From positions 36,520-100,519 of the IMG/VR virus record IMGVR_UViG_3300049844_000277: 64,000 nucleotides of DNA; one strand, written 5' to 3'. Under the pieces are notes generated by a model. It was not told where the DNA came from. It ran no database searches and worked only from the letters and a program-made list of their open reading frames with translations. Source of the stretch: a virus. The translations under genes and the position numbers were made by a program. Positions 7,181-43,223 of the stretch are shown piece by piece (the stretch's first letter is position 1; the number at the start of each line of letters is the position of its first letter).

Positions 7181-7194
7181 AAATCATTGTACTA

Positions 7195-7238
7195 CGTAAA
7201 GCGAAACGGCCGCCGGTCCATTAGGACCCAGCGGCCGT
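7195..7238 (-). terminator. Candidate rho-independent terminator after the 419-aa gene
   Basis: The minus strand reads ACGGCCGCTGGGTCC-TAAT-GGACCGGCGGCCGT (about 13 GC-rich bp with a small internal loop), followed by TTCGCTTT. Confidence 0.45.
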
Positions 7239-7268
7239 CGTGGGCCCACTAACTGGGAGCGAAGGAAC

Positions 7269-8528
7269 TTAGCTCGCCGAAGCCGCGATTTCTCGAATGC
7301 GACCCAGAAGAGCGCTCTCCTTCTTCTGAGCCTTACCCGATTCGTCCTCGTGCTCAACTTCCTTCTTCATCTTCTTGCCCTTCTCAGACTTCGACTCGTC
7401 GCCCTTCATACCTTCCGCGCAAGCCGCCTCTGCTGCCTTCTTCTCCGCATGCAGATGGTTTAAGTACTCCTGCCTCGCGGTGTGGTCGTACCCAATCATC
7501 CGGCTGATAGCCGCAACCTTCTCGTCATCGCTCATCTCCGGAAGGTACGGACCCACGTCTTCCGCGGTCTTCTTAAAGAGGACCAGGAAAGCATCTTCCT
7601 CTGAAGTCTTGGAAGCTTCAATGACCGAGTTCGTCCCAGCGGGGCTGTTCTTAGGCGCCTTAGGGTGCGGCATCTCAGTGCCGACATGGTGCGTCTGAGG
7701 CTCCGAGATGTTGGCGTTACCCATTCCAACTAGGTACGCCCCCTGAGGACGATTCTTTGCGTCAAGCTTCGCCACTGAATCTACCGAGTCGGTAAGCTTG
7801 TTCTTGTCCTTACCGTCATGTAGTCCAACGAGCTTATTCGCAATCTTCTTAAGCTCGGCATCAAGCCCCGCCGCCTTCGCCGAACCGGCGTCCTTCGCTA
7901 CCGAATTCGTACCAGCAGGCGTATTCGCTGGACCCTTGGGATTCTTGCTCAAGTCACCAACGTGACCCTGCATAGACTCGAGCTCAGTCTTGCCCATGCC
8001 GTGGTGATACATTCCCTCGGGTCGTTGCTTTTGGTCTAACGCAGCAACCTCCCCATTATGTGCAGCTTGCGCGGGGTCATTACCCTTGTCGCCACCGTGC
8101 ATGAGAGCGCCGCCGGATGCTTGCTTAACCTCTTCCGCAGCCTTGGTCATACAGGCAACAGCCTCTTCGCCCGCAAGAGACTCGTAGTCCGCTTGAGCAG
8201 CGGTCTTCGTAACTTCAGCAGCAGCTTTTGCTACCTCGGGGCTGGGAGGAGGAAGCGGCATACCGCCCTCACCCGGAGGACCACCGGCAGCGCCGGCCTG
8301 CTCCATGAGCGCGTGAGCAATTTCCATGAGCTTATTCGCCACAGCGGCAAGCTCTTCCGGCGAATGACCGCCCTCAGGAGAAACTTCCGGCATTGGCGCG
8401 GCTACCGGAGAATCGGCGACAGCATCCGCCGCCTCATCCATGGCTTCCTTTGACGGAAACGCGATGATCCCCTGGCGAACCAGTTCGTGTGCAACTCCCC
8501 GTGCTGCGGCGCGCTTAAAGAGTCCCAT
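7269..8528 (-). CDS. Acidic Ala/Lys-rich protein with an internal ~49-aa duplication (scaffold- or decoration-like by composition only)
   Basis: Residues 163-211 (ALDQKQRPEGMYHHGMG...PAGTNSV) and 254-302 (KLDAKNRPQGAYLVGMG...PAGTNSV) are paralogous. AAGGAG RBS, own candidate promoter upstream and terminator downstream. Confidence 0.6.
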   Translation of the reverse strand: MGLFKRAAARGVAHELVRQGIIAFPSKEAMDEAADAVADSPVAAPMPEVSPEGGHSPEELAAVANKLMEIAHALMEQAGAAGGPPGEGGMPLPPPSPEVAKAAAEVTKTAAQADYESLAGEEAVACMTKAAEEVKQASGGALMHGGDKGNDPAQAAHNGEVAALDQKQRPEGMYHHGMGKTELESMQGHVGDLSKNPKGPANTPAGTNSVAKDAGSAKAAGLDAELKKIANKLVGLHDGKDKNKLTDSVDSVAKLDAKNRPQGAYLVGMGNANISEPQTHHVGTEMPHPKAPKNSPAGTNSVIEASKTSEEDAFLVLFKKTAEDVGPYLPEMSDDEKVAAISRMIGYDHTARQEYLNHLHAEKKAAEAACAEGMKGDESKSEKGKKMKKEVEHEDESGKAQKKESALLGRIREIAASAS

Positions 8529-8562
8529 GAAAGTTTGCTCCTTTTACTTTTACTTTGGCCGG

Positions 8563-8591
8563 AGTGTAGGCCAATGGTTGAGATTTAACAA
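8563..8591 (-). promoter_or_regulatory. Candidate sigma-70-like promoter for the 419-aa gene
   Basis: The minus strand reads TTGTTA, a 17-nt spacer, then TACACT, about 35 nt upstream of the AAGGAG RBS. The host consensus is unknown, so this is weak. Confidence 0.25.
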
Positions 8592-8633
8592 TCAATGTAG
8601 TCGGTCGGCGCCGCTACGTACAACTTAGGAGAA

Positions 8634-9083
8634 TCACCCGCCTGAAACAACTTCAGGCTTTGTATCGAACTTGCGCCCCAGTTCGCGCCCAAGAGTTCCT
8701 AACAACATACCACCGCCAAGCTGTCCCGCAAATCCGCCCAAAGGAGCCCCTAACAGAGACCCTGTTAAATTTCCAATAGCTTGTCCTACTACTTCTCCGC
8801 GATATTCAGACGGTGTCGCCTTAGTTTGTAGTGCTGTAAACACCAAAGGAAGCGTAAGAGTTCGCGAAAGATCTCCGCCTGTACGCGGTAAACCTTGCGT
8901 GTATAATCCTGTCTCTGGGTGAAAAAGTGTGCCGTGGTATATTTGCTTTGCGGCCTCTATCGGTCTTCCAATCGCTGAAATGCGTGCCGCCGTAAGAAAA
9001 TCACGAAACGCTCCCGCGCACTTAGTAGCCTCGAAATCTCGTAGTGCGTTTGACGCGCCTGCTATATACGCCCAGTCACGCAT
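8634..9083 (-). CDS. Hypothetical protein with C-terminal glycine-zipper segment
   Basis: The C-terminus reads GQAIGNLTGSLLGAPLGGFAGQLGGGMLLGTLG (GxxxG repeats). The gene starts 2 nt after the beta' C-half stop. Confidence 0.5.
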   Translation of the reverse strand: MRDWAYIAGASNALRDFEATKCAGAFRDFLTAARISAIGRPIEAAKQIYHGTLFHPETGLYTQGLPRTGGDLSRTLTLPLVFTALQTKATPSEYRGEVVGQAIGNLTGSLLGAPLGGFAGQLGGGMLLGTLGRELGRKFDTKPEVVSGG

Positions 9084-9085
9084 AA

Positions 9086-10885
9086 TTAGTAACGCCCTTC
9101 CGGACCCATCCCAAATTCAGCCCCATAAGCATAGGCGGGTACCGGATGCGTACTGTGTAAATCAGACGCAGCGCCGGTTCGTGCCCCCTGCAGAAGGGAA
9201 TCCTTTAGATATCGGTGAGCCAAGCGCGCCATCCAGTCAGGATGTAGCAGTGGATTACGTGCCATCGGACGCATCAAAAATTCTACCCGAGGTAATGTAG
9301 TGGCGACAGATACTTCCGAAATTTTATGCTCATTCAATTTCTGTATAACTGATGGTGTTAACGGAGTTCCGGCGGTGAAGTGAAGAACTTCTTTACCGAG
9401 TACACCACCCTCCGCCTGCTTCAACGGAACAGATTTACTGTGCCGTGCTGCGGCATCTCTATACGTTGAGTAAGGAATAACCTCGCCCTTTACCAACGTA
9501 GGATGCTCATCAGTATGCTCGAGAACTTTGACGTGGTTGAGGTCCGCGCGGGCAACCAACTCAAGGTGCCGCTTGTCGACATTGAGTCCTTGTCCATGAT
9601 AGATGTCGTGCAATGTGTCCACGAGGTACTGTCGTCCGACACCAAAGCCCTTGTGATGAATGAGCTCGTCTGGTTTCGGAATTCCTTCTGATAAGACATC
9701 CCCCGCCTCTACTTTCTGTCCCACATGAACTAAGATTTTTAAGTTTGGTCCGGCGTAATGTTGTAAAGCATCAACATGCACGTATGTTCCACCGTGCGGA
9801 GCTGGGATTATTTTTGTAATAGTACCTGCGTGCTCTGCTAGCGGTGCTTTATTAATGAAGGTCTGGGGGATTTCCAAAAGCTGACGGATACCAGACATCC
9901 CCTCTAACTTGGGGGATGTACCTTTGAGTAACCGCATACCGTGCTTAGCGCCGAGCGCCATTTGAGTCAACGGTTCGGAGATAGACTGGGCGGCACGGAC
10001 TCCGACGTTAACACCGATAGCGTGCGGACGTCCTCGCTCATCTAGACCCTGGCACTTACGACAGACGCCATCCTTGGTGACGCAGGTCATTGGTGAACGC
10101 ACGTACACTGTACTGACCTTTGCCTGAAGCTTAGACGCCACTTCTTTTGTAACTAAATCATTCCGATGAAATCCAGCCTGGTCTCGAGATAAATAGCGGT
10201 CAACAATATTTCCATCGGAACTATTCATTGCGAGACCGTTATCAGTTCCGCAATCGTCCTGGGTAATAACCAGCGGATACATATTGTTGGTCATCACCTT
10301 AGACATATCGCCAGGCTCTGCGATGGCCGTATAGGTTTGTACGATGTTATGTCGCGCTTCGTTTCCTGCGGCCCAATGGTCAGCAGCGGACAACCCTTCG
10401 GCGTAGGACTTACTGATTAGCCAGGGATTTATCTCCCCTTTGCTTGTCGTAGTCGCAACCGGGGACGCAATGGTTTTCATCAGCTGCGGAATATTGCCGC
10501 GCGCACCCGACAATGCCATCGAGGTCATAGAACCTGGATGCTTTTTGGTGTGCTCAAGCATCTTCTTTTGTACATCTAAAATAATCTTCTCTTTGGCGTC
10601 TCTATTGTCCGCGTTTTTAATTGCGGCGACAGCGGGCTGCATGATGCTGTCGCGTTCTTTGTACTCCGGCGTAATGTCATCCAACCCTACAGAGACACCT
10701 TCAAGCGTAGAGATGTCGTCCCCTAAGGTTTTTAGCTTAGAGACAATTTCTACGTATTCGGCAGGATCTTCCTTGGCCAAGTCCAACATTTTCTGTTGGA
10801 ACTCTTTTTTATTTAGTGTGCCCGTAATGTGATGCTTCCCGGGCAGCAGGCTATTGACCAGAAACCTACCTAACGGCTGAGCCAT
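9086..10885 (-). CDS. rpoC: DNA-directed RNA polymerase beta' subunit, C-terminal half
   Basis: Motifs colinear with bacterial beta': GVSVGLDDI, SGARGNIPQLMKT, GLSAADHWAAGNEARHNIVQTYTAIAEPGDMSKV (bridge-helix region), GVNVGVRAAQSISEPLTQMALGAKHG (trigger-loop region). It continues where the 2836-aa ORF stops. Confidence 0.85.
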   Translation of the reverse strand: MAQPLGRFLVNSLLPGKHHITGTLNKKEFQQKMLDLAKEDPAEYVEIVSKLKTLGDDISTLEGVSVGLDDITPEYKERDSIMQPAVAAIKNADNRDAKEKIILDVQKKMLEHTKKHPGSMTSMALSGARGNIPQLMKTIASPVATTTSKGEINPWLISKSYAEGLSAADHWAAGNEARHNIVQTYTAIAEPGDMSKVMTNNMYPLVITQDDCGTDNGLAMNSSDGNIVDRYLSRDQAGFHRNDLVTKEVASKLQAKVSTVYVRSPMTCVTKDGVCRKCQGLDERGRPHAIGVNVGVRAAQSISEPLTQMALGAKHGMRLLKGTSPKLEGMSGIRQLLEIPQTFINKAPLAEHAGTITKIIPAPHGGTYVHVDALQHYAGPNLKILVHVGQKVEAGDVLSEGIPKPDELIHHKGFGVGRQYLVDTLHDIYHGQGLNVDKRHLELVARADLNHVKVLEHTDEHPTLVKGEVIPYSTYRDAAARHSKSVPLKQAEGGVLGKEVLHFTAGTPLTPSVIQKLNEHKISEVSVATTLPRVEFLMRPMARNPLLHPDWMARLAHRYLKDSLLQGARTGAASDLHSTHPVPAYAYGAEFGMGPEGRY

Positions 10886-10891
10886 GGGAAT

Positions 10892-11308
10892 CTATCTCGC
10901 CCCGTATGGGTCATTAGGAGGCGGAGGTTGTTGAGGTTGAGACGGTGTCATGGCCTGCTGTATGCCCATCATAGCTAGGGGAATAGACGCTTGAATCGCC
11001 ATATCCCGCCCAAAACTTTTTAAACCTGATTTCCAACCACCTGGCTCTTGGGCTGGCGTTGCGGGGACCTCAGGTGTCTTTGGTACAGTGTCCGCAGACG
11101 TCACTGCCGGATTGGCGGTACCACCAAAAATAGGCGGCTTGCCTGCTGGCTGCTGTACCGGCGCTGCTGGCGATGTCTTCGGCGTAACAGGTTTGCCCTT
11201 CTGACCCTTCGCGAAGCGCAGCATCTGAACGGGCGCAGGCGCAGCCGTTTTCGTAAACGTCATCCACGCATCAGTAGTTCCCACAGAATAAAAGATATCG
11301 GCAATCAT
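10892..11308 (-). CDS. Proline-rich hypothetical protein
   Basis: ORF of 138 aa that is Pro/Ala-rich throughout. No motif recognised. Confidence 0.4.
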   Translation of the reverse strand: MIADIFYSVGTTDAWMTFTKTAAPAPVQMLRFAKGQKGKPVTPKTSPAAPVQQPAGKPPIFGGTANPAVTSADTVPKTPEVPATPAQEPGGWKSGLKSFGRDMAIQASIPLAMMGIQQAMTPSQPQQPPPPNDPYGAR

Positions 11309-11664
11309 ATCGCAGCTCCGTCCCGACCAATGCCGGAGTAATCATACGTAGGCGAGCCGCCGCTCCAAGGACTTGATACTCCGCCCCATCGTACGGGGTT
11401 CCCAAAACGCTCGCGACGTTTATCACGCTCAGGGGAAATCCCCGGGTCCATGTCCGTAAGATGCTTAGCTAACCGCTCCGCGGCTACGTTCATATCCCCG
11501 TGCGGAATAGCATGCTGCATGGCATGAGCGGCGGTTCTCACGCCGAAATCTTCTTCTGCGCGAATTCTACCTTCAGCGTAAGCTAAATTCGTCATACGAA
11601 AACCTAGGCTACTCTCGCCCACTACGCAATCGATTAGGTGTAACAGCGTTCTCTTTCCAACCAA
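11305..11664 (-). CDS. Hypothetical protein (start uncertain)
   Basis: The track ORF starts at TTG. An internal ATG at 11595 (MTNLAYAEG...) is an alternative. A ~52-codon GTG ORF (from 11767) in another frame overlaps the 5' end. Confidence 0.35.
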   Translation of the reverse strand: MVGKRTLLHLIDCVVGESSLGFRMTNLAYAEGRIRAEEDFGVRTAAHAMQHAIPHGDMNVAAERLAKHLTDMDPGISPERDKRRERFGNPVRWGGVSSPWSGGSPTYDYSGIGRDGAAI

Positions 11665-11750
11665 CTAAAGCTTCGCGCTTTTTAACGGCATCCTTTAGTT
11701 TCTGCGCTAATTCTTCAGCGGCGATGCGCTGTCCTTCCTCGTAAGCGTAC

Positions 11751-12380
11751 TTAAGTACCGGCTCCACGGGAACCTCCTTCACAGAACATCATTCGCCGTA
11801 GGTCATCAGCATGCTGCTGGTCAGTAAGGACCATTTGCTCCAGCATGACCTTAAGCGACAAATTATCTCCGGCCATGTCTGACAGATGTCGTAACTCTTC
11901 AATCAATTGCTTCTCAGTTTGTAGAAGAGTCATGAAAATCTGGTGGAGGTCACTCATGTTCGGGATGACACCTACCTTAGGAATAGGTTCTCCGCCTAAC
12001 GCCGTAATCTTCATTGCGAGATGGTAGGCGTCCATCCGCTCTTCTTTGATGTGCTCTTTAAAGTGGTCGTAGATAACATCTCTAAAGTGCGCACGAATAC
12101 GATCGCCATAATTCATATACATGAAGATGATGGTATATTTGTAGCGCAGCAACTTATTACACTGAGCCACTACCTTATCCTGGGCAACCGCGAAGAATCC
12201 TTCCTCGGCCGATACAGCAAGAGGATGAGCACCAGCAGATGCTGTGGCAAGCGGAGGCATGGCGAACATCTCCTCCGTGTGCGGGGATGACTCCATTGTG
12301 TCCGCCATTGGACTGCTAGGAACTGGAAGACTCGAGCCACTCTCAGCCATGGAAGTACCCACTTTGTAGCGCTGCGTCAT
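11751..12380 (-). CDS. Dps/ferritin-like four-helix-bundle protein with ~70-aa N-terminal extension
   Basis: ...YMNYGDRIRAHFRDVIYDHFKEHIKEERMDAYHLAMKITALGGEPIP... and ...LLQTEKQLIEELRHLSDMAGDNLSLKVMLEQMVLTDQQHADDL... follow the Dps pattern (F..lH..f.e....d.iAERi.aLGG.P ... gD..t...l). Confidence 0.55.
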   Translation of the reverse strand: MTQRYKVGTSMAESGSSLPVPSSPMADTMESSPHTEEMFAMPPLATASAGAHPLAVSAEEGFFAVAQDKVVAQCNKLLRYKYTIIFMYMNYGDRIRAHFRDVIYDHFKEHIKEERMDAYHLAMKITALGGEPIPKVGVIPNMSDLHQIFMTLLQTEKQLIEELRHLSDMAGDNLSLKVMLEQMVLTDQQHADDLRRMMFCEGGSRGAGT

Positions 12381-15300
12381 GTACCCACCTCAACTCGAGT
12401 ATTGAGCGTAATCTCCCCGCGCTTATAGGCGGCGAGAGCTTCTTCTCTATTTTTGAAATGGCGTACTTTATCGTTCGCGGAACTCTCGGCTTTGGACGCC
12501 AAATGTACCCCAAGCATAGCTTCCATTCGTGGCGCTACCATCAAGCTATCTTTTTCACGGTCCGAGAATAGAAGGTTTGAGAGAGTCATCCCCTTCACTT
12601 CATCTATCGCGGGCTTCAGTACGGGAACGTGGATTTGGAATGTGTCCCAAACTACGAGGCCGTCGTTGACCGCGAAAATTTGTGTGTCAGGAACAATAAG
12701 GTCATAGACGGTTTCTTTTCTTAATACCTCGACCGACTCTACTAGATCCCAGGTAATTCCAACGTTCTCAACGATCCTTGCCCAAGCATCGACATCTGGT
12801 GTTTTGGCCGTCCGGAAAAAATGCAACATACGCCGAGCGTTTTGCCTCGTAACGTATGGAGCCTCTTTTCGTTTAGATCGTAGCGTAGCCAATGATGCGC
12901 AGAACGAACTATCTTCCGCGCACGGACCAGTACGGCTGGAGGCGAGGGTCATTAGATTTTTAGGAACAGGAACAATATCCACCTGATCCACAAGTTCATC
13001 AGCTTCTAGGAGGTTCAAAGCCTCCAAAGATTTAGAGTTGTTCCAAATTCCTCTACGAAGCCAGGACACGTTACGCTGGAGGTCTACGGTACTAATAGGT
13101 ATCGTATAAGCTACAGCTTTTTGGAGACGTCCCTCCTTCGGATATGCTTCGCTCACAGAACACCGGACGCCGATAGTTTGTAACAAAAAACGTAATGAAG
13201 CTGCTAACGCAGCAGACGACGTGTGAAGGGCGGCCATCACTTGAAGTTTTGCCTTACCGGCGCTGACAGTGAGTGTACCGTCACCGTTCAACATTCCGAT
13301 GAGCACACCCCACCGAGCCTCCTCAGACCAGTCCCCAAACGCTGGCACGCGTTTCGAGAGACAAGAGCGTCCGGGTACCCTCTCATCTAAGTAACAAGTC
13401 TTGAACAGCTCAACGCACTTCTGCGCACCACTAAAGTGGTCTTTGATACTTTGTCCTGTTATTCCGTTAGATGCGTCGTGTACCTCACGATACGTATTTC
13501 GCTTAATGAGCTTACCCTCAAACGCATTCACCGCGGCAGCAAAGCGTTCACGGTGCACGTCACTAACTTTCGTGTACCCGAAATAATGATCGGTTTCACC
13601 CAGTAAGAAACCGTCGGACAAGAATGCGCCGACCATCCATCCAAACTCAAAATCCCCCTGTGACCCCGTTAACGGTAAATGCCGCACAACCGGAGCTAAC
13701 TTTCCAACGGAATCCGAGGGCGCTGTTGCTTCGATCTGACCTGTTTCATGGTTATAAATACACAACGACTCATTCGTCGACGCCGTAACGCTTAAACCAC
13801 GACGCATTTCTACTTTCGCCACTTCGCATCCGTCTTCAATCGTAAGTCCTGTCACCGGGGACATTACTGATTTACTTGCGGAGTGGTCGTAAGAAAGAAC
13901 GCGAAAACCCTCCGGAACGGCGTAACTGCGAGCACCATTCTTGTCGATACTATAGGGCTCCTCAGCGTGTGGAATCTCTTGAAGCTCCGCTTCCACCAGC
14001 GCCTGTACCGCTGAGGTCCAACAAACACGAGTCTCTGCCGCGAATTTCATGGCTGTCTCCTTGGCTTCATCGCCAAGGAGCGCTTTACAAGCCGCACCTT
14101 CTGCTGTCAACACAACTTTCGTCGAACCCAAGAAACAGTTTCCATCGTAATCCGCATTGAAGCCAAGCTCTGCGAACGGATTTACGCGAATCGTCTTCCC
14201 CGCAACAGGGACGGCGTGAGCGCCAATAAACCCGTACCGGTGGAGAGTCGGAGCGCGATTCACCATCACCGGACGCTCCTTAATCTCCGCCATCAACGCG
14301 TCGTGCGCTGCCGGATGTTTCTTTTCCAACATCTCTTTCGCTTGAATGGCTCCGAAGCCGCGACGGATAAGGCGTGAGATAATAAACTTCCCGTACATGC
14401 CCCAAAGCATGTCTATCGGAATACCTATCTCATCCATGCTCAGAGAGCCGTCTGGAGCTATGGTTCCGCGGCCGGAGATATCTTGCTGCCGCTTCATTAT
14501 TCGTTTTTGGAAAAAGGAACTGTTCCCCGATACGGAAGGTTTACCGTTACGGCGAACAACTACAGTACCATTAGGGACTGTCACACAATACACGGTTCCT
14601 TTGTACGGGTACGCCTCGGTAAAAGAGCCCGACTCAATGGTGACATCAGAAAACCCCCGCACAGAAAAAAGATAATGCGGGAGATGGTGATCCTTAACTG
14701 GCGGACAAATTCCTCTAAAAATAACTTGGTAACCTATTTTTGCAGCGAGATGCTGTAGGTCATCAATTAATTGTAAACTAGCGGTACCGGCGTGAGCACT
14801 CAGCGGTTTACGCCGATAATGGGTTTTCGGGTTTTTCACGTTCTTCGCTAACGAAGGGTGAAGGGTTCCATCTCCACGCAGATATCCGCGCAATAATCCC
14901 TCTAACATAGCAGAAGGCCACGCTAAAATATCTGAAGATAAGTGTTTACTCTCGCACCCACGCCCGCAATGATGCGTTAACCAATCCGCCAGTGAGCGTA
15001 ACCTAATAGTCCACCAGATTACCTGGTATCCATCTTTACGCGTATATGTTTTGCGTACAAAGGGAATATCCAATTTTTTAAAGCACAAATCCACCGCGCG
15101 AACGTGTGGAGACGTTGCGGCTTGACACAAAGAAACCTGGGTTCCTGTTGTGGAAATCCAACCTTCCGCAATCCACCAACCTACAAACTCCGCAAAGGCC
15201 AAAGGATCTGGAGTAAATGTTCCTACTAAATTAGCCGTACGCCGTTTTTTGTTATCCGTAGAAACTTCACACGTATCTCCCGCGAAAACCAACTCCGGAA

Positions 15301-18300
15301 AAGTACCCTCCCACTCCTCAGCGCTAACCATTACCCTCCGGCGGTCCGTGCCTATAAAAGTATCCGCGCGTACCTTTTCCCACGGAGTCCAGACATAGAG
15401 CGCCTTACCGTTACTTACGCGCTTACGGCGATACGAGACTACATGTTCGTGGTTAGGTGTTACACATAAATCAAGTTCACGGCTGCGCGTATGTATCAGA
15501 TCTCCGTCGAACGGCATGGATACTAACGCGGTCGGCTTCTGCCATTCAAATTCCCGGGTGTCTAAGTTAACCGTAGCGACACGAGTTTTTCCGGTGTACT
15601 TAGAAAAACGAACCCACCCTTTTTCTGTAAGAATATCTGTTTGATCATCGTAACATTTTGGCGTAGTTTTCCCGGTAATATGCTCGAGAAATCCCTTTAC
15701 GTTTCTCTTTTGGAGTTTGGGGTTATCTGATTCGTGCGTACCAATCACGGCGCCTACCGCGTGAAACAAGTTCTGACGAAGCTTCGCTTGTTCATCCGGC
15801 GGAAGAATTGGAGATTCAATTTGCTTCCGTAATGACTGATTATGAAGGATAGCGCTTTGGTACAGGTAGTTCGAATCACCTACTACGAGCTCAGAGCCAC
15901 TCTTCCCCGGAAGAATGGGTCGCATTATTGGAGGAAGAACAGGCAACTTGGATAGGACGTACGCATCTCCCGGCTTGAGCTCCTGCCGATTCAGCGCCTC
16001 AAGGAACTTCAACTGCTTTACTGCGTCATCTAGCTTCGTACCGGAGAGCGACTTAATAGAGTTACGGAGCTCCGCGATACGCGCCTTAACGTCGATAGCG
16101 TTAAGCTTTTTCTTTACCGCAGCGCCACCATTCGTATGGTGATACTGGTCAAAATCTTTCGCGGTCATCCCCAGCAAGCGACGGGCAGGGTCGGCGAATA
16201 CAGGATTTACAACGGGCTCGGCGAGCTCAATGTGGCTCCACCGTGTTCCAGTGGTACCGCCAGTAACCGCGGGGTCAAACAATCCCCCACGTTCAGCGGC
16301 CAAATCTTTAGCGCGTACTAACTTCTCATTTTGTACTTCGCCAGATGACATCCGTAGAATGTCTTTATCGGTAAGCGGAGAGAGCGTGCTGATACTTCCA
16401 CGCGAATCAACTTTGACCCCTGCGCCATGCAGCATACCGATGAACTTGTCATAAACGAACGACGACTTGAGTGGAGGGAGAGGCAGTCCCAGCTGAATCG
16501 CCCGCCAGAACTCATCGTTCTTCTGGCTCTTAATAGCCGCCGTCTCTCGAAGCACGTTCCGCGCATTATGTGCAACGAGGGCATTGAACTCCATTTTACC
16601 GACGGCTTTCGCGCCTTCGTCACCGCCCTTAATTGGCTGCTGATTAACGTCGTACGCACCCGTACCGCGCGCGGCGTAGTTGGTCTCCGTGGTCTTAAAC
16701 AAGCGAAGTACGTATTGCGGCCCAACCAGGATTCCCGGAATCTTTTTACCCGACACAGGGTCTATCAGCGTTTCCTTGTCCTTGACCTTGTGCTCCTTCA
16801 GTAAATCCTTTGCCCACTGTACGTTGTCACGCCCTGAAAAGTTTTCAACGACAATAGGTTTACCGATTTTCTTGGCAACCTTAGCGACACACGTCTCTAG
16901 TATTTGCGACGGATTGATTCGGGAAATTACGCCAGCCGAGGTATACAAAACCTCAATCGGCTTACCCGTCTCATCTTGAAGCATCTTGTGATCGGGAACA
17001 ATAAGGGAAACAACGCCCTTGTTTCCGTGGCGTCCTGTGTTTCCGCACCATACTGATTTACCATTTCTGCGAACATACAAAACATGTCCAGGAACAGTTA
17101 CACAGTAAACTGGTGATTTGTACGAATCTACAAAACATTCCACCTGACCCTTCTGTCGTTTGATATGTCCATGATTCACAGTAGGTGTTAATTTCGAATT
17201 AATAATTCGTACCTGCCAATAATCACGACACCAAAAATCTTTACCTTTGATTGTTTGATACCCTTCAGCTTTCGCTAACGACACATTAGCAGCTTTACCA
17301 ATATGTAGTGCGAGACGCTGAACATCATCCGCCAAACGTTTGGATGTTGTTTTGTAGCATATCGGTTGGCCATTTTTAGTATGACCGTCACCCCACATCA
17401 ACCAGTTGAATAGCGTCTCTTGATCCGCTCGAGACCAAGCGAACACCTCAAGCGGGATAAATTTCTCGTAAGACTTACCGAACTGTTTAAAGTACTGCCA
17501 ATATTGCTTGGAATGAATACGAACCTTATCACCTGTGTCCGTGAATAAAATCCCTTCCTCACGAAGAAACTTTTCTAACTGTTTTCGATTTGGCTGATTA
17601 ATTTGCGTAATCTCTATGCCGTAAGTACCGGATTCTTCAATCGTAATGAGATTACCTTCAGATAAAAACGCACCGAGAAGAGCGGCTAAGGTTTTAGTCG
17701 GAAGCGCTTTATCATCTAAAACACGTAAACCCCGGCCCCCTTGTCCCGCGCGCACAGTTATCGAGTCAAATACAAACGACTCAGGAGAGTGCCCCACCCA
17801 AATCCCATCCTTCTTATAACTGACCCTTTTTCCTGCGATTTCATACGCCGGTAAAAGTTGGAAAGATTTCTCGTTGCGCGGTTGAACGTACATATGATGT
17901 CCGTCGGTCACAAACAAATCTACCTGTTGTGATTCGATGCGGTACATCCGTCCGCCTTCTGGATACGAATGAATTGCGTCGGGCTCTAGGTACTCGATAT
18001 TTTCGCCATTCTGTAACGTACAAATCTTATCCGTAATACGTACATCCGCTATCGGTTTCCACCCTTCCCACGTGAGAACCTCAGTCTCTGCATCATAACA
18101 GAGCTTGTCTCCGACGCGCATCGGCTCACGGGTCTTAACCGTTACAACGACACGCTTGTCCGTCACATAAACATCCATGACTTCACCTTCGAAGTCGTGG
18201 TCCCACGTACGAACAAGTTCCCGATACGGCGTAACTAACGTCTTCTTTAGGTTACCGAGAAGCGCATCAGACGCCGAAAGTTTACCTCGTGTGACTCCAG

Positions 18301-20887
18301 CGATGAGTATGTCGTGAGGCATAACCTTCATGCCCTTCTTCACGACACCATTGGGGTCAAGCTTACGATACTGCTCTGCGGTATACTTCGACCCGTAGTA
18401 CTGCTGATGGATATCCCTGCCAACCTTGGAGTCGCGATCTACTTCAACAACTTCCTTGTACATATGCTCTGACGTTAACTTCTCGGCGGCGCCAGAGGAG
18501 ATAACGACGGCATCGTTGGAGTTCATTCCGTAATACGGAACGTACCCTACCGTCATATTCGTACCGAGAGCGAAGGAACCGTTGCGGGTAAAATTAGACT
18601 CCGCGAGCGGCTGATCCGCTTCTACCTTATCACCAGGCTTCACCAGAATGTCGTGATGAAGGTGTGTCTTAGATGCGAACGGAAAATTATTCTCGTATGG
18701 AACCCGAATCAAATCTTTCTCAGCAGCTACCTTTTCCCGATTACGCTCGGAGAGGTAGTCCTCTTTAAACTCATCCCAGGTATACTCATCCATGGAACCG
18801 TAGCCCCAAGGAGGACCGTGCTTCTCGTAAGCGCTTTTAGCGGCCTCTTTGGAATCGAAGCCAAGCATGCACTTGTCTTCGTCGTGAGACCCATCCTTCT
18901 TGCGCTGATGTACGACGTAAACATTATCGAAAGAACCATCTTCCTTCAGATAAACGTCGACCGTTTCACCGTCGTCGCCGACGGTCTTAGGAATGTGTCC
19001 GTAGGCCACGGACATCTTCTTTTCCCACTTCTCTCCTTCGGCGTTAGTGCCGGTACGAATATCTCCCGGTTCAAGCTCAATCTTAACGAGCACACCTTGA
19101 ACAGTCTTTTGACGCTTGACCGCCCCGCCTCGTTTCTCGAAAGCGCTCTTCTCGCTTAAGAAATCTTCAGCGTGCTTCTTTCCGCTAGGGTCGATGTAGA
19201 TGTATTGCCCATCAACCTTCACTACTTTGCCCGCTACAGGTGCCGTAGGAAGAACCAGCCCCGCGAGCTCCTTCTCCCAGCTTGAATGCTCAACACCCTT
19301 CTCAGTCAACTTATTGGCGGCTGATTGTACAAGAGGTGCTTCGCGATGAACGAGAGGAAGGGCTTGTGTTTGAACCTTACCACCCATGATGGCACGGTTC
19401 CCCTGCATCGACTCAAGGAACGGGACAAGGTTAGTTGCCGGAGAATACAACTGAGCCACGTCGTACAACTGGTGAGTCACCTTTGCCGCTGGTACGTGCT
19501 CCAACTGCCCTTTGTTCATTGCGGTGACCATTCCCGTAAGCTTTTGCTTAGGGAACGCCACGACCGCCTCGGACATTTGAGCCGCAGACAGCATCTCATA
19601 CTTACCGGACTTAATGTTCTTAGCTGCGGTGTAGAGATTTCCCGTAGCATCCCGGTGCGCCATCATCGCCGTGCGAATATCAATACCAGCGCGGAAGGAC
19701 TCAGACGTACGAACGGGGTCCAGTATCCCTAGATGACTCGAATGAATAGTACGCGCTTCAGCGGGAATCGCGCGCTCATTCGGAATACCTCCTTCGCCGA
19801 GAGATGTAACACGCACAGCGTGGTCGATGGCCTCCATCGGGTTGATGTGCGTGGGAATCGAGCTCAGTTGTGAACCCGTAAGAAAACTTCGGATGCCGGG
19901 CGAAAAGGGCGACGAAGGAAGAATCGCACGGAGTTCAGTCTTATGTGTTGCGCGACCCTTTACCTTATTTGCCAGGGCACGTGCATCCAGCGTTATACGT
20001 TCCTTGATAAAATCGTCTACCGAATGATACGTCTTGAAACGTAAAGCGTCACGATCATCAGTATCCGCATTATCCCGGTACACCTGTAATAGCCGCTTCG
20101 ACGCAACGAGTAGTGCCTGCGGCGTAACCGATGAAAAAGCGTGCCCCAAGGTTTGTTGGTTAACCTCGGGATCCATAGACGTAACAGCGTAAGCTGCTCG
20201 AATAGCATCAAGCTGTGTCTCAGGATTAGTCGCAGCACGTTTAGCCGGATGCACTACTTTCTCGTAAAGCTTATTCAAATGCTTATCGTGCTTACCTTCG
20301 AAAGCCGCCTCATTTTGATGAGCGACATCCGAGCCCCAATGAGTAGAAATATCAGCGTGCGGAACGCCTAATTTTCGAAGTACGGGGTAAAGCGGAATAG
20401 ATGTCGTCCCATACTCGATGTATGGATGTCCTTGGGCAGGGTCTAACGAAAGTCGAAAATTGGTTCCCTTCGACAAGTTAAAGGCGGCCTCTAGTTCCTC
20501 ATTTCCACGTCGCCGCGTATAGACGCCAGGCTTGAGCCGAAGTTGATTTGATACGTTGTACTCGTTACCGTCCAAAATAAAAGTATGCCGTCCTGTGAAA
20601 TAAGGAAGACTCAATAACGTAAAGTTCTTAACTTTCTCAACTTCTTTACCGGAAGCATCACGTAGTGTGACGGTTCCTTTTATCGGCTCAGAAAGAGAAC
20701 CACCGCTCAATAGCGCGTGCTTTTGATCGTTTGGGCCAAAGTCCTTTTCATGGACCTTCAGGTCACTGACCTCAATACTCTTATCCCGCAATGTCAGTGG
20801 AAAAGCGTTTCGCAACGCATCGAGCGCCTTTGCACGAATTTGAACTCGACGGGACTCGGCATCGGTAAGCACGGGAGTGAGCGACAT
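12377..20887 (-). CDS. rpoBC: DNA-directed RNA polymerase beta subunit fused to the N-terminal half of beta', interrupted by three inteins
   Basis: Beta motifs: FILDGNEYNVSNQLRLKPGVY, GEGGIPNERAIPAEARTIHSSHLGILDP, GNRAIMGGKVQTQALPL, VGDKL|TGRHGNKGVVS, GKMEFNALVAHNA. In the same frame follow beta' motifs: RWSHIELAEPVVNPVF, LPVLPPIMRPI, VNRAPTLHRYG, FNADYDGN|TFQIHVPV. Removing the three inteins (354+378+498 aa) leaves about 1606 aa. Confidence 0.9.
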   Translation of the reverse strand: MSLTPVLTDAESRRVQIRAKALDALRNAFPLTLRDKSIEVSDLKVHEKDFGPNDQKHALLSGGSLSEPIKGTVTLRDASGKEVEKVKNFTLLSLPYFTGRHTFILDGNEYNVSNQLRLKPGVYTRRRGNEELEAAFNLSKGTNFRLSLDPAQGHPYIEYGTTSIPLYPVLRKLGVPHADISTHWGSDVAHQNEAAFEGKHDKHLNKLYEKVVHPAKRAATNPETQLDAIRAAYAVTSMDPEVNQQTLGHAFSSVTPQALLVASKRLLQVYRDNADTDDRDALRFKTYHSVDDFIKERITLDARALANKVKGRATHKTELRAILPSSPFSPGIRSFLTGSQLSSIPTHINPMEAIDHAVRVTSLGEGGIPNERAIPAEARTIHSSHLGILDPVRTSESFRAGIDIRTAMMAHRDATGNLYTAAKNIKSGKYEMLSAAQMSEAVVAFPKQKLTGMVTAMNKGQLEHVPAAKVTHQLYDVAQLYSPATNLVPFLESMQGNRAIMGGKVQTQALPLVHREAPLVQSAANKLTEKGVEHSSWEKELAGLVLPTAPVAGKVVKVDGQYIYIDPSGKKHAEDFLSEKSAFEKRGGAVKRQKTVQGVLVKIELEPGDIRTGTNAEGEKWEKKMSVAYGHIPKTVGDDGETVDVYLKEDGSFDNVYVVHQRKKDGSHDEDKCMLGFDSKEAAKSAYEKHGPPWGYGSMDEYTWDEFKEDYLSERNREKVAAEKDLIRVPYENNFPFASKTHLHHDILVKPGDKVEADQPLAESNFTRNGSFALGTNMTVGYVPYYGMNSNDAVVISSGAAEKLTSEHMYKEVVEVDRDSKVGRDIHQQYYGSKYTAEQYRKLDPNGVVKKGMKVMPHDILIAGVTRGKLSASDALLGNLKKTLVTPYRELVRTWDHDFEGEVMDVYVTDKRVVVTVKTREPMRVGDKLCYDAETEVLTWEGWKPIADVRITDKICTLQNGENIEYLEPDAIHSYPEGGRMYRIESQQVDLFVTDGHHMYVQPRNEKSFQLLPAYEIAGKRVSYKKDGIWVGHSPESFVFDSITVRAGQGGRGLRVLDDKALPTKTLAALLGAFLSEGNLITIEESGTYGIEITQINQPNRKQLEKFLREEGILFTDTGDKVRIHSKQYWQYFKQFGKSYEKFIPLEVFAWSRADQETLFNWLMWGDGHTKNGQPICYKTTSKRLADDVQRLALHIGKAANVSLAKAEGYQTIKGKDFWCRDYWQVRIINSKLTPTVNHGHIKRQKGQVECFVDSYKSPVYCVTVPGHVLYVRRNGKSVWCGNTGRHGNKGVVSLIVPDHKMLQDETGKPIEVLYTSAGVISRINPSQILETCVAKVAKKIGKPIVVENFSGRDNVQWAKDLLKEHKVKDKETLIDPVSGKKIPGILVGPQYVLRLFKTTETNYAARGTGAYDVNQQPIKGGDEGAKAVGKMEFNALVAHNARNVLRETAAIKSQKNDEFWRAIQLGLPLPPLKSSFVYDKFIGMLHGAGVKVDSRGSISTLSPLTDKDILRMSSGEVQNEKLVRAKDLAAERGGLFDPAVTGGTTGTRWSHIELAEPVVNPVFADPARRLLGMTAKDFDQYHHTNGGAAVKKKLNAIDVKARIAELRNSIKSLSGTKLDDAVKQLKFLEALNRQELKPGDAYVLSKLPVLPPIMRPILPGKSGSELVVGDSNYLYQSAILHNQSLRKQIESPILPPDEQAKLRQNLFHAVGAVIGTHESDNPKLQKRNVKGFLEHITGKTTPKCYDDQTDILTEKGWVRFSKYTGKTRVATVNLDTREFEWQKPTALVSMPFDGDLIHTRSRELDLCVTPNHEHVVSYRRKRVSNGKALYVWTPWEKVRADTFIGTDRRRVMVSAEEWEGTFPELVFAGDTCEVSTDNKKRRTANLVGTFTPDPLAFAEFVGWWIAEGWISTTGTQVSLCQAATSPHVRAVDLCFKKLDIPFVRKTYTRKDGYQVIWWTIRLRSLADWLTHHCGRGCESKHLSSDILAWPSAMLEGLLRGYLRGDGTLHPSLAKNVKNPKTHYRRKPLSAHAGTASLQLIDDLQHLAAKIGYQVIFRGICPPVKDHHLPHYLFSVRGFSDVTIESGSFTEAYPYKGTVYCVTVPNGTVVVRRNGKPSVSGNSSFFQKRIMKRQQDISGRGTIAPDGSLSMDEIGIPIDMLWGMYGKFIISRLIRRGFGAIQAKEMLEKKHPAAHDALMAEIKERPVMVNRAPTLHRYGFIGAHAVPVAGKTIRVNPFAELGFNADYDGNCFLGSTKVVLTAEGAACKALLGDEAKETAMKFAAETRVCWTSAVQALVEAELQEIPHAEEPYSIDKNGARSYAVPEGFRVLSYDHSASKSVMSPVTGLTIEDGCEVAKVEMRRGLSVTASTNESLCIYNHETGQIEATAPSDSVGKLAPVVRHLPLTGSQGDFEFGWMVGAFLSDGFLLGETDHYFGYTKVSDVHRERFAAAVNAFEGKLIKRNTYREVHDASNGITGQSIKDHFSGAQKCVELFKTCYLDERVPGRSCLSKRVPAFGDWSEEARWGVLIGMLNGDGTLTVSAGKAKLQVMAALHTSSAALAASLRFLLQTIGVRCSVSEAYPKEGRLQKAVAYTIPISTVDLQRNVSWLRRGIWNNSKSLEALNLLEADELVDQVDIVPVPKNLMTLASSRTGPCAEDSSFCASLATLRSKRKEAPYVTRQNARRMLHFFRTAKTPDVDAWARIVENVGITWDLVESVEVLRKETVYDLIVPDTQIFAVNDGLVVWDTFQIHVPVLKPAIDEVKGMTLSNLLFSDREKDSLMVAPRMEAMLGVHLASKAESSANDKVRHFKNREEALAAYKRGEITLNTRVEVGT
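12644..14137 (-). mobile_element. Intein 3 (498 aa, LAGLIDADG type) inside the catalytic NADFDGD-type motif of beta'
   Basis: Junctions are FNADYDGN|CFLGSTKVVLTAEG... and ...VYDLIVPDTQIFAVNDGLVVWD|TFQIHVPV. Dodecapeptide motifs are MVGAFLSDGF and LIGMLNGDGT. The C-terminus is atypical (Trp-Asp instead of His-Asn). Confidence 0.75.
14522..15655 (-). mobile_element. Intein 2 (378 aa, LAGLIDADG type) in beta' N-half
   Basis: Junctions are ITGKTTPK|CYDDQTDILTEKGW... and ...VVVRRNGKPSVSGN|SSFFQKRIMKR. The site corresponds to the bacterial LLGKRVDYSGRS region. Dodecapeptide motifs are FVGWWIAEGW and LRGYLRGDGT. Confidence 0.8.
17039..18100 (-). mobile_element. Intein 1 (354 aa, LAGLIDADG homing-endonuclease type) in beta, inside the GDK..GRHGNKG motif
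   Basis: Junctions are VGDKL|CYDAETEVLTWEGW... and ...LYVRRNGKSVWCGN|TGRHGNKG. Dodecapeptide motifs are LLGAFLSEGN and WLMWGDGH. Confidence 0.85.
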
Positions 20888-21053
20888 GTTCGTAAGTATA
20901 GACCCTTATTTTGGTATCAGTATATGAGTCACATGCTGTGGCTCATAGAGGGAAGTACCATCACCACCACCAGAGGGGAAGTACAGTGAAAGTGGCAAGG
21001 GTACAGAAGAGGGGTGTAGTAAAAGTAACAACGAGAAAGGAAGTGAGGGCGAG

Positions 21054-21725
21054 ATGTTCCGACAGGAACTAAAGCTCCCCCTCCCCCCAATCCCGTTGCT
21101 ACGGGAAGCGCTCATCTGCGCCGTGGATGACCCTCGAAGATGGGGACAGCCAGGAACTCCGGGTGAAACAATGCCCGAAGCCAAGCAGATGAACATTCTC
21201 GCAGAAATCGCCGCCGACCTCTGCAGGGGTACGCGGTGTTTCTTCTGCGGGAGACAGCAACCGGAGACTCCTCTCGAGGATGTATACCGGTTCAATCCCA
21301 ACACCCCGCTGTGCGAATGTCTTACGCCGTATAGGCGTATGGCGTTCGATTACATCGAGGGATGGGATTGTGAGGAAGGGAAGAAGTCCATCCTCACGCA
21401 AGTGGAGAAGGGAACGATGGACCCGCAGACAAAAGTCTATCAGTATATCTGTAAGTGCGGGACGTTGGCGGTAGTCACCGCTAAAACGCTCGCGAGTGGG
21501 TTGCGAACCTATCAAAAGCACAAGAGACGTAACTTGTGCGATAGGTGCTACAAAGAGCAGGGTAGAAAGCTGGCCGCAGCTATGGTTATGGCTGCGAGGT
21601 CCAAGCATGGGGCGGAGCAAGGTCCGCATGCTAAAATTAATAAAACACCCACCCTACTGAAACCATCAGTAGATACCACAAACATAGTTGTAAATGCACC
21701 GGGGGTAGTAATCCCTCAGTGCTAG
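21054..21725 (+). CDS. Cys-rich hypothetical protein (223 aa), divergent from the RNAP gene
   Basis: GAGG-type RBS before ATG 21054; an alternative ATG lies at 21171. Cys pairs: CRGTRCFFCG, CECL, CKCG, CDRC. A hairpin terminator follows. Confidence 0.45.
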   Translation: MFRQELKLPLPPIPLLREALICAVDDPRRWGQPGTPGETMPEAKQMNILAEIAADLCRGTRCFFCGRQQPETPLEDVYRFNPNTPLCECLTPYRRMAFDYIEGWDCEEGKKSILTQVEKGTMDPQTKVYQYICKCGTLAVVTAKTLASGLRTYQKHKRRNLCDRCYKEQGRKLAAAMVMAARSKHGAEQGPHAKINKTPTLLKPSVDTTNIVVNAPGVVIPQC

Positions 21726-21800
21726 AAGGGACCGGTACTTGAACATCAAGTACGTCGCTTTGGTCGCCCTGATTCTGCTCGGGGTTTAAGGCCAAGGCAG

Positions 21801-21847
21801 CTCTCTCGTGGGAGGTATCTCTCACGAGAGAGTCTTGGTCTTGTTTC
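21801..21847 (+). terminator. Candidate rho-independent terminator
   Basis: CTCTCTCGTGGGAG-GTAT-CTCTCACGAGAGAG forms a ~14-bp stem, followed by TCTTGGTCTTGTTTC. It sits between convergent genes. Confidence 0.5.
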
Positions 21848-22343
21848 AAATATCAGGCTCTGGCGCAGTCCCGTCTACGCGAGGTTCCGGCTTCTTTTTT
21901 TTCGTCGGAATCTTCTCATACCAGCGTAACGAGATAATTACAGAACCATCCTTCTGCGGAATCTCTTGCTCCGAACCAAAGAGCATCTTACCCGCCAGAA
22001 TCGCATTGATTGTCTCTTCGTACTCAGGACGAGTTACGTGCGGGCACTCGTAATCGCCTGTGTCCGGTAAATTCGCTGCGCCAGAAGCGAAATCATTTCC
22101 GCAGCGGGAGCACGATTCCCATGGGCGGAAAATAGTAAACACTTTACGATGAATCTTGAAGTCATACGCCGTAACTCCGGCTATACCATCGGCCTCTGTA
22201 TCTATGACGCGATGCTTGTCGTTAAATGGTAACGGAAAACCATCTGGAAGGTCTCTTCCACGCTCATCAGGCTCAGATGGCCCCTGCATCGCGGCGCTGA
22301 GTACAGATGCGAAGTCAGAACCTACTTCAGCTTTTAACGGCAT
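21846..22343 (-). CDS. Hypothetical protein (165 aa)
   Basis: ORF directly downstream of the portal-like gene. Contains CSRCGN...ECPH. No family recognised. Confidence 0.5.
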   Translation of the reverse strand: MPLKAEVGSDFASVLSAAMQGPSEPDERGRDLPDGFPLPFNDKHRVIDTEADGIAGVTAYDFKIHRKVFTIFRPWESCSRCGNDFASGAANLPDTGDYECPHVTRPEYEETINAILAGKMLFGSEQEIPQKDGSVIISLRWYEKIPTKKKKPEPRVDGTAPEPDI

Positions 22344-22362
22344 TAATCACTCCCGAAGATAT

Positions 22363-25374: not shown

Positions 25375-25430
25375 TTGCGGCCCTCAGTCGTTCTTGTTTA
25401 CGCATCCTCAGTATAGCCTTTGGAGAAGGC

Positions 25431-34128: not shown

Positions 34129-34167
34129 CCGCACGAGCTACTCGTGCCCACAACCCGAGGAGCTCTC

Positions 34168-42496: not shown

Positions 42497-43223
42497 CGAG
42501 CTCTCGACGCAGATGCTTGGTTCTATCTTCGACGTAACGCCAAGCAACAGCTAACCGGCCAAGCTGCGCCCCCAAGGCGGAAATATCGAACGTACGTGCT
42601 TTTCGTTCGAGCTCCTCCTTGGGGAGCGCTTGCCAAGCCGCTTCGGTTTCTTTTTGAAGCACTAAGGAATCCGCGCTCAATTTACTCGTCAACTCTTCCA
42701 ACGCGAATCCCAAGCCGACGGGTGGAAGTACTAGTCCCTCGTCGAAGAGAGATACACCGACGTACGCAGCGACGCTCTCGTCATATTCAGGTCGAGTAGA
42801 TTCACCATCAGTCAGCGCAAACAAGAGCTCCGCCTCAAAAGCGGCCCACGCCATCTGCGCTGAATCACACTTCGGCACGTCGTTCGGACTTACCATCTCC
42901 TGCGTCAAGGCGTGCGTCGTTGCGCCGAATACGCGGTAATCCCAGTAAAAGCTGGGAGTCAGCGCGAGCGCAACACCCGCCATTAATTTATCTCGATTCG
43001 AGGTGTGGATGGGTAGTTCGTGCCATAGCGTTTCAGGCTCGTAAGCCGTGAAATGTGGACCCAGTAAATAACGGGCTGATACAAGTAAGGCTGTTGCAGA
43101 CGTATCTGCGTTTTGTAGCAACTCTTTAGCGGTCTGCTCGTGTACGGACGTAGGGATGCGGAAATATGCCGCATAGGCTTCCTTTACTGCGAGACGTTGT
43201 AGCTCAGAAAGCGTCATCGACAA
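42480..43223 (-). CDS. Hypothetical protein (247 aa)
   Basis: Long ORF, translationally coupled to the upstream gene. No motif recognised. Confidence 0.5.
   Translation of the reverse strand: MSMTLSELQRLAVKEAYAAYFRIPTSVHEQTAKELLQNADTSATALLVSARYLLGPHFTAYEPETLWHELPIHTSNRDKLMAGVALALTPSFYWDYRVFGATTHALTQEMVSPNDVPKCDSAQMAWAAFEAELLFALTDGESTRPEYDESVAAYVGVSLFDEGLVLPPVGLGFALEELTSKLSADSLVLQKETEAAWQALPKEELERKARTFDISALGAQLGRLAVAWRYVEDRTKHLRRELATFEH

Follow-up and report, generated by a model that had tools for sequence, protein, structure and literature searches.

A phage RNA polymerase core of bacterial type with beta fused to the N-terminal half of beta' and the C-terminal half of beta' as a separate gene

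The present analysis concerns the RNA polymerase (RNAP) genes in 64,000 nucleotides (nt) of viral DNA, positions 36,520 to 100,519 of IMG/VR virus record IMGVR_UViG_3300049844_000277, a stretch referred to here as the window. Two open reading frames (ORFs) on one strand encode the parts of a multisubunit RNAP core. A sequence-only reading had proposed a phage-borne core of bacterial type in which beta is fused to the N-half of beta' and the C-half of beta' is separate, and Pfam searches, alignments and conservation in relatives bear this out; both ORFs lie exactly where that reading had placed them, with the lengths it had given, and the beta and beta' motifs that it quoted are all present in the order described. 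The RNAP features, with lengths in amino acids (aa), are as follows.

12377..20887, minus strand: ORF of 2836 aa for the precursor of a beta plus beta' N-half fusion, containing three inteins, with an extein product of 1606 aa (ORF list and translation)
16397..20887, minus strand: beta part of that ORF, aa 1 to ~1497, including a slot insert and intein 1 (MAFFT alignment with Salmonella RpoB and RpoC)
12380..16396, minus strand: N-half of beta' at aa ~1498-2836, corresponding to E. coli beta' ~19-550 (alignments)
9086..10885, minus strand: 599-aa C-half of beta', corresponding to E. coli beta' ~575-1407 but lacking SI3 (Pfam, PDB, NCBIfam and alignment)

The long ORF carries the N-terminal ~45% of beta' in frame, with beta' residues ~19-550 (E. 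coli beta' numbering) joined directly to beta. Pfam domains along its 2836 aa occur in the order Rpb2_3, InPase, Rpb2_6 split by a LAGLIDADG element, Rpb1_1, Rpb1_2 and an intein splicing domain, and a phmmer search of PDB with this one long protein returned both a beta match (E=4e-54, the best) and a beta' match (E=2e-32). The reference subunits for alignment in MAFFT, RpoB and RpoC of Salmonella, came from a contaminating bacterial record. This alignment agrees with the stop-free continuation of beta into beta' that had been noticed near 16.39 kb: the beta C-terminus, ...GAGVKVDSRGSI, runs without a linker into beta' at about residue 19, with the junction at aa ~1497 (nt ~16.39 kb). Over the two ORFs the domains are collinear with the bacterial subunits (Rpb2_3, Rpb2_6, the GDK...GRHGNKG lysine motif, Rpb1_1, Rpb1_2 and Rpb1_5), and the Pfam and PDB matches cover all catalytic domains. 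The beta flap-tip segment is kept and beta SI2 is absent in the alignment to Salmonella RpoB, and the lid, clamp helices, rudder and catalytic loop can all be aligned in the beta' N-half; in bacteria, sigma docks on the flap-tip segment of beta and the clamp helices of beta'. The missing beta' Zn ribbon suspected earlier is a genuine deletion of the first Zn ribbon, a 32-residue segment (E. coli beta' ~66-97) that is missing in every family member aligned. Identity to enterobacterial beta and beta' is 27-32% across alignable conserved blocks (25-33% in BLASTP blocks against RpoB), so that the earlier description of the core as close to bacterial is right about the bacterial type but overstates the closeness, which holds only relatively.

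The long frame ends at the equivalent of E. coli beta' ~550, with ...AYKRGEITLNTRVEVGT followed by the stop, and the 599-aa protein picks up at ~575 with MAQPLGRFLVNSLLP..., corresponding to TVGRAILWMIVP, the hairpin 552-572 of beta' being lost between the two halves. The C-half retains the F-loop and bridge helix, all four cysteines of the second Zn site, a trigger loop that is short but has its His, and the C-terminal conserved region, with SI3 absent in the alignment. Pfam assigns the 599-aa ORF Rpb1_5 and a weak Rpb1_4, the PDB search gave a beta' match at E=2e-35, and the ORF covers positions 552-1071 of the NCBIfam rpoC profile. Orthologues of this C-half in the related contigs L003, L005 and L006 are 82-85% identical, and beta' is broken at the identical position in a 196-kb relative, in phage Arash and in Vibrio phage D181.

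There were 753 homologues of the extein query at E<=1e-10, and in the best 120 of these 753 the beta and beta' Pfam domains occur in one chain of 1445-2480 aa, bar one 949-aa fragment. Many of the fusion homologues lie on contigs of 170-197 kb, and intein-free ones of 1600-1608 aa are 82-86% identical at 100% coverage. Within IMG/VR, 58 loci had a relative of the beta' C-half and 47 of them had sufficient upstream sequence; in 45 of the 47 a single frame upstream of the separate C-half, at a distance of 0.65-5 kb, contains the beta lysine motif, the GGLFD junction motif and DYDGD. Among 50,697 GenBank phage records, a one-piece match across the beta/beta' junction was found only in Arash and in Vibrio phages D69, D148 and D181, and no near-identical DNA was found among GenBank phages. 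The gene order is also retained on a 196-kb contig, which has sigma factor, ParB, nuclease, SNF2 helicase, portal, two small genes, fusion, ferritin-like gene, small genes and beta' C-half in the same succession as the window. The combination of fusion and split is shared by a large clade of phages of ~170-197 kb and is not unique, with Arash, the three Vibrio phages and hundreds of metagenomic proteins having the same architecture.

Because the arrangement recurs in independent contigs, neither chance nor an error of frameshift or assembly can account for it. That the fusion is such an artefact, or that the contig is bacterial chromosome, is so improbable as to be negligible; no point in its favor was found, and over 100 proteins and contigs, independent of one another and of different origin, have this fusion, as do isolate genomes, which answers the earlier concern that related genomes might have a stop or frameshift at the junction. 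The phage origin of the contig, also raised as a concern, is evident from TerL, from an orthologue of the Arash portal protein and from synteny with phage contigs of 180-196 kb. Phage genes in the window encode TerL, endonuclease VII, a family A DNA polymerase, Prim-Pol, VapE-like, SNF2, PD-(D/E)XK and ParB proteins, a sigma-70-family factor and a Bro-N protein.

The other two of the 47 loci are unsplit: L055 encodes a full beta-beta' fusion of 2066 aa (5579..11779) and L058 one of 2079 aa (5504..11743), in which a five-residue link, NGRET in L055 and NGKDT in L058, occurs exactly at the split site of the window; the catalytic loop of L055 reads DHDGD. The split form is most simply derived from a full fusion, since these distant relatives are unsplit, and it probably arose by gene insertion at a permissive loop after the catalytic barrel. 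The beta part in D181 (OZ196140) contains a group I intron (RF00028, 100.7 bits, at L002 9182..9462) and, after it, a homing-endonuclease ORF. The two D181 "hypothetical proteins", of 515 and 1006 aa, thus correspond to exons of a single fusion gene, and the apparent extra split in beta is this group I intron.

Three genes lie between the two halves in the window.

11751..12380, minus strand: ferritin/Dps-like gene, 209 aa (Pfam PF00210; same position in L003, L005 and L006)
11305..11595, minus strand: small conserved protein of ~96 aa from an internal ATG (11595), listed as a 119-aa TTG ORF at 11305..11664
10892..11308, minus strand: variable Pro-rich ORF, 138 aa, with conservation limited to the first ~31 aa, in a single relative

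The Dps-like gene and the Pro-rich gene stand as first described, but the middle gene had been given as 119 aa and its conserved part is ~96 aa; the start is placed at the internal Met because relatives have stop codons upstream of that Met. In tblastn the ~96-aa protein is 59-64% identical in L003, L005 and L006, and it has no Pfam, PHROG or NCBIfam match, as is true of almost all of the flanking and intervening ORFs searched against these three collections. The stop of the fusion overlaps the start of the ferritin-like gene (ATGA), which is preceded by a GAGGTG Shine-Dalgarno sequence, and the ferritin-like gene and the ~96-aa protein are kept between the RNAP genes in close relatives.

These intervening genes bear on whether the halves might be rejoined, through an intron or trans-splicing, into one beta-beta' chain like that of L055 and L058 or of Helicobacter. 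Unsplit relatives do exist, and the RNAP genes of this family attract mobile elements such as the D181 intron, but there was no match to any Rfam intron model in the DNA between the halves (10700..12600 searched), there were no split-intein motifs at the half ends (...RVEVGT before the stop, and MAQPLGR...), the beta' C-half has its own ATG start, and the genes in between are conserved and protein-coding, those of Arash including virion-protein genes and genes on the opposite strand. Rejoining is thus very improbable, and the absence of an intron match, the ATG of the C-half and the opposite-strand genes separating the Arash halves argue for a true gene split as opposed to an intron.

The same two-gene layout of beta plus beta' N-half and then beta' C-half, with genes between, is found in Arash (OQ632216; Gp206 and Gp216) and in Vibrio phages D69, D148 and D181. 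The Arash fusion is 1525 aa and its C-half ~606 aa, with 33-37% identity to the window proteins. The fusion junction, the split point, the Zn-ribbon deletion and the portal gene just upstream all match in Arash and the Vibrio phages, and the window has each of the features by which an Arash-like system would be recognized, i.e. a fusion ORF, a same-strand downstream C-half of ~600 aa, a deleted Zn ribbon and an upstream portal gene. Arash, which has a single RNAP set, differs in being without inteins and without the InPase insert described below, and in having nine intervening genes versus three in the window, while the fusion gene of the Vibrio phages carries an interrupting group I intron that comes with a homing endonuclease. 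In the Arash publication Gp206 is labelled beta and Gp216 beta', with no mention of fusion or split (PMC10585845).

Other multisubunit polymerases share some of these features. The mReC group (Weinheimer & Aylward 2020, PMC7481178) consists of tailed phages, mostly of 100-300 kb, with deep-branching, alignable, bacterial-like beta and beta'. In the table rows of that publication that were consulted, beta (920-1563 aa) and beta' (899-1370 aa) are separate and complete, with two sets on some contigs, whereas in the window the NADxDG motif is in the beta-containing ORF and the other piece of beta' is 599 aa. Its text mentions no sigma factors, no inteins and no fusion or split of mReC enzymes, naming a fusion only for crAssphage (PMC7481178), and the window family was not recognizable in its tables. 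Since the rows consulted list beta and beta' as separate proteins, a different architecture, membership of the window in mReC was rejected; a related locus, L011, with a 1999-aa fusion and a 599-aa C-half, likewise does not match an mReC entry of 1371 plus 1010 aa.

Polymerases of the phiKZ/AR9 type resemble the window enzyme in being phage-encoded, without alpha and omega, split in beta' after the catalytic double-psi barrel and, for one set, virion-packaged. They differ in that their beta is divided into two or three polypeptides unfused to beta', in being far more diverged, in having no sigma-family factor and in usually having two paralogous sets; the window, with beta unsplit and fused and a sigma-70-family gene present, does not belong with them. 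The sequence-only reading had held that phiKZ-type enzymes are split differently, but for beta' the placement is not very different: the window split sits in the same linker after the double-psi barrel in which, according to a review, the phiKZ-type beta' splits fall. RpoBC of Helicobacter and Wolbachia likewise has the C-terminus of beta fused in frame to the N-terminus of beta', but there beta' is full length and the genomes are cellular, with alpha and omega, whereas the window frame stops at beta' ~550. The NCBIfam models for beta/beta' fusions match only the C-half ORF, and far below their cut-offs (84 bits versus 5372, and 67 versus 4632), and among the relatives a full fusion as in Helicobacter occurs only in the distant L055 and L058. 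In cyanobacteria and plastids beta' is divided into gamma/RpoC1 and beta'/RpoC2 in the same linker after the catalytic barrel. The phage break precedes the cyanobacterial one by some tens of residues, with the gamma chain extending ~67 residues past the end of the phage N-half; residue 42 of the phage C-half aligns to position 26 of the rpoC2 profile, the phage protein is without an SI3-type insertion, and the rpoC2 model TIGR02388 scores 96.8 bits on the window against a cut-off of 467.4. From these alignments the phage split looks independent of the RpoC1/RpoC2 split. There was no description of a fused-and-split architecture in the literature found; in its architecture the enzyme is a new variant among phage multisubunit RNAPs, present but unrecognized in a few isolates and many metagenomic contigs.

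The beta part of the window contains an embedded enzyme-like domain, and neither this nor the catalytic-loop intein anomaly described further on was mentioned in the sequence-only reading.

18761..19120, minus strand: InPase (type I inorganic pyrophosphatase-like) domain, aa 590-709 (Pfam PF18823, 112.6 bits versus a cut-off of 26.8)

The whole slot insert occupies ~18713..19192 on the minus strand (aa ~566-725) at a surface hairpin equivalent to E. coli beta ~737-745. Across relatives the slot varies from 12 aa, when it is empty, to 528 aa, and in representatives Pfam identified one or two pyrophosphatase-like domains, a GNAT acetyltransferase, a P-loop kinase-like domain or unassigned modules. 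Of 57 relatives with a long slot, ~40, including the window, retain the acidic InPase motifs (YG.IP.T.G.D.E.[VIL]D[VIM], D[EA]DK and [KR].E[LV]..GD). InPase domains have been described in virion-packaged polyvalent proteins of phages, for which clearance of pyrophosphate (PPi) aiding early transcription was proposed (PMC5512222), and an InPase inside a polymerase fits that proposal of virion-borne PPi clearing.

The fusion precursor contains inteins at aa 930-1283, 1745-2122 and 2251-2748, with boundaries set by comparison with intein-free homologues.

17039..18100, minus strand: intein 1, 354 aa, LAGLIDADG, at beta GDKL/TGRHGNKG; Cys1, ending ...CGN, +1 Thr (Pfam LAGLIDADG_3)
14522..15655, minus strand: intein 2, 378 aa, LAGLIDADG motifs, at beta' GKTTPK/SSFFQKR; Cys1, ending ...SGN, +1 Ser
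12644..14137, minus strand: intein 3, 498 aa, LAGLIDADG motifs, in the Mg-binding loop, NADYDG-N/CFLGS...GLVVW-D/TFQIHVP (Pfam Intein_splicing below cut-off)

Inteins 1 and 2 have the features of class 1 inteins, i.e. Cys1, a block B of TDGH and TPNH respectively, a ...GN end and +1 Thr or Ser. Their penultimate residue is Gly, not His, which is a known variation (PMC4031507). The site of intein 2 is also occupied in the homologues P0029 and P0055, and there are four intein sites across 126 homologues. Intein 3 does not fit class 1: Cys1 and +1 Thr are present, but block B reads TASTNES without a His and the end is Trp-Asp, not His-Asn. Its junction codons are at 14138..14140 and 12644..12646, and the -1 residue, at the position of the third catalytic Asp, is Asn. 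All 154 of the catalytic-loop sequences without an intein read DYDGD followed by T, A or S. By comparison, the pattern DYDG-N/C...(W/Y)-D/T, together with a TASTNES block replacing the block B His, occurs in six of six sequences with a Cys1 intein at this site (the window, P0010, P0013, P0041, P0127 and P0128, the last of these a mini-intein in the RNAP of a distant host). The remaining inteins at the site keep Asp at -1, and have either a Ser start with an Asp end or a non-nucleophile start (D, K, N or F) with an Asn end. A homologue search with intein 3 itself, limited by its word-index prefilter, found two proteins only; the IMG/VR loci and the set of RNAP homologues supplied the further examples. 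Inteins that end in Asp are rare but documented, and inteins lacking the block B His are almost unknown (PMC4031507).

The precursor reads NADYDG-N, intein, TFQ where intein-free relatives read NADYDGD. Either an Asn ligand is tolerated, or non-canonical chemistry restores the Asp, or the allele is impaired. As one non-canonical option, the -1 Asn might form a succinimide that activates the N-terminal scissile bond and regenerates the catalytic Asp. Impairment would mean a crippled or decaying allele in which intein 3 leaves Asn for the third catalytic Asp or fails to splice, with no active polymerase; this is improbable, even though intein 3 has neither a block B His nor a penultimate His, does not end in Asn and has Asn at -1, inteins without the block B His are so rare (PMC4031507), and the Asp is kept in all ~160 sequences that are intein-free or have another intein. 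The Asn...(Trp/Tyr)-Asp pattern and TASTNES recur, however, in five other sequences from diverged hosts, including the distant mini-intein, and the flanking exteins are highly conserved (79-86% identity), which argues for function under selection and not for decay.

Other features of the window relate to how such a polymerase might be used.

22363..25374, minus strand: portal protein, ORF of 1003 aa, orthologue of Arash gp204 (tblastn to the portal regions of Arash and Vibrio D181, in two blocks; Pfam Hint and LAGLIDADG)
31260..32093, minus strand: sigma-70-family factor, 277 aa, regions 2 and 4 (Pfam Sigma70_r2 and r4; NCBIfam TIGR02937, 70.5 bits versus a cut-off of 42.9)

The RNAP genes are placed between the portal gene and genes for structural proteins, the ORFs downstream of the C-half matching the Arash virion proteins gp218 and gp219. 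The sigma gene has an orthologue in L003 that is 83% identical and in the same relative position, and, judged from its domains, its product is the probable initiation factor for the fused and split polymerase. No alpha or omega Pfam family was found among the window ORFs scanned, in keeping with what had been noticed from the letters, and tblastn with E. coli RpoA found no match in the complete genomes of Arash or the Vibrio phages, a search that diverged analogues could escape. Promoter-like sites with the sigma-70 consensus are depleted in 7000..26000 (6 observed versus 17.2 +/- 3.7 in shuffles). The RNAP gene block is preceded by a gap of 541 nt, in which a 15-bp hairpin occurs (21800..21833).

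In Arash, mass spectrometry of virions detected Gp206, with the top spectral count of all proteins, Gp216 and the sigma factor Gp10, the three ranking among the most abundant virion proteins (PMC10585845). The catalytic core domains, the fusion and split points, the sigma-docking elements, the nearby sigma gene and the position in a virion module are all observed in the window. Given how abundant its Arash orthologues are in virions, together with a sigma factor, the likeliest function, by analogy, is that of an injected, alpha-less, sigma-using RNA polymerase. Our reading, to which we give a probability of roughly three in four, is that the two genes encode a complete, two-polypeptide, phage-specific core of bacterial type, which would be without alpha and omega, use a sigma factor, be packaged in the virion and injected for early transcription, and have its InPase clear PPi. 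One polypeptide, beta tethered to the beta' N-half, would mature from the 2836-aa precursor by excision of the three inteins, and the other would be the beta' C-half with the bridge helix, trigger loop and second Zn site. The enzyme would work without alpha and omega, the beta-beta' tether replacing the alpha-dimer assembly platform, for which there are analogies in the alpha-less phiKZ-type enzymes and in engineered or Helicobacter beta-beta' fusions. Promoters would be recognized through the phage sigma factor, the InPase embedded in beta would hydrolyze the PPi released by RNA synthesis, and the packaged enzyme would, as suggested by Arash, transcribe early genes on injection independent of the host polymerase.

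Several points weigh against this reading. Virion packaging is known for Arash only, the proteins of which are 33-37% identical to those of the window. Canonical splicing of intein 3 would leave the third Mg-binding Asp as Asn (DYDGN-T), and since all intein-free relatives have Asp there, the catalytic competence of the window allele is not assured. Orthology of the window sigma factor to Arash gp10 was not detectable (E=0.024), nothing physically ties the window sigma to the polymerase, and a crude count of intergenic 7-mers yielded no convincing phage-specific promoter motif. The 64 kb of the window also belong to a genome of ~180-196 kb, the rest of which could hold an analogue of alpha or omega or another polymerase, unless such genes are too diverged to recognize. 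An alternative explanation, clearly less probable but deserving some weight, is that the polymerase is real and is not a virion protein here, being made after infection from host-transcribed genes for a middle or late role, with or without the phage sigma. This would be consistent with a sigma that is not an orthologue of the Arash virion sigma, and with the sigma-70-consensus promoter-like sites that do exist in the region, though depleted. It would not account for the position of the genes in a structural module, between the portal gene and the gp218 and gp219 homologues, or for the top virion spectral counts of the Arash orthologues, and InPase domains are typical of virion-packaged proteins.

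Most of what is known of phage multisubunit RNAPs comes from the phiKZ/AR9 group, which is very diverged and has no sigma factor. The family described here can be aligned to bacterial beta and beta', keeps the sigma-docking elements and has sigma-70-family genes alongside, yet no alpha or omega was found, and in Arash it is virion-packaged. Culturable systems (Arash on Salmonella, and the Vibrio phages) make it possible to test how assembly of a two-barrel RNAP can do without an alpha platform, what the minimal size of a sigma-dependent core is, and how split viral RNAPs originated. An embedded pyrophosphatase would couple PPi removal directly to transcription, and the variable slot suggests that an injected polymerase may also deliver effectors. 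Unusual chemistry of protein splicing could be tested cleanly on the Mg-loop intein, with its fixed exchange of Asn and Asp. A broader interpretation, tentative and rather doubtful as a whole, is that these genes represent an undescribed class of phage transcription machine: a minimal two-chain, injected RNAP without alpha or omega and dependent on a sigma-70-family factor, with exchangeable enzyme cargo in beta (pyrophosphatase, GNAT, kinase-like and other domains), a catalytic-loop intein of non-canonical chemistry, and forms documenting fragmentation by mobile elements towards the phiKZ type. If true, the fused, the fused-and-split and the intron- or intein-interrupted forms would record how an RNAP of cellular type was fragmented in that direction.

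The RNAP genes of this family are hot spots for mobile elements. Elsewhere in the window, the portal ORF at 22363..25374 contains a LAGLIDADG intein of 427 aa (RKANE/CVSL...ATKN/SIALEHVV, 23269..24549, minus strand), L003 being intein-free there, and the family A DNA polymerase ORF at 34144..37527 contains a mini-intein of 138 aa (GRLS/C...NKN/SNDENMQNIP, 36109..36522, plus strand); the 64-kb window has at least five inteins. A SNF2-family helicase gene (25431..27488, plus strand) is divergent from the portal and RNAP block and is kept there in L003; a linked Swi2/Snf2 helicase also occurs in jumbo phages with their own RNAP (PMC7824862). There is a reverse transcriptase gene (RVT_1; 47331..48467, plus strand) in the replication region, around which no pair of template and variable repeats was found within 43000..53000, so that it is not obviously part of a diversity-generating retroelement. 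One tRNA gene is located at 62184..62256 on the minus strand (Rfam RF00005, 68.2 bits).

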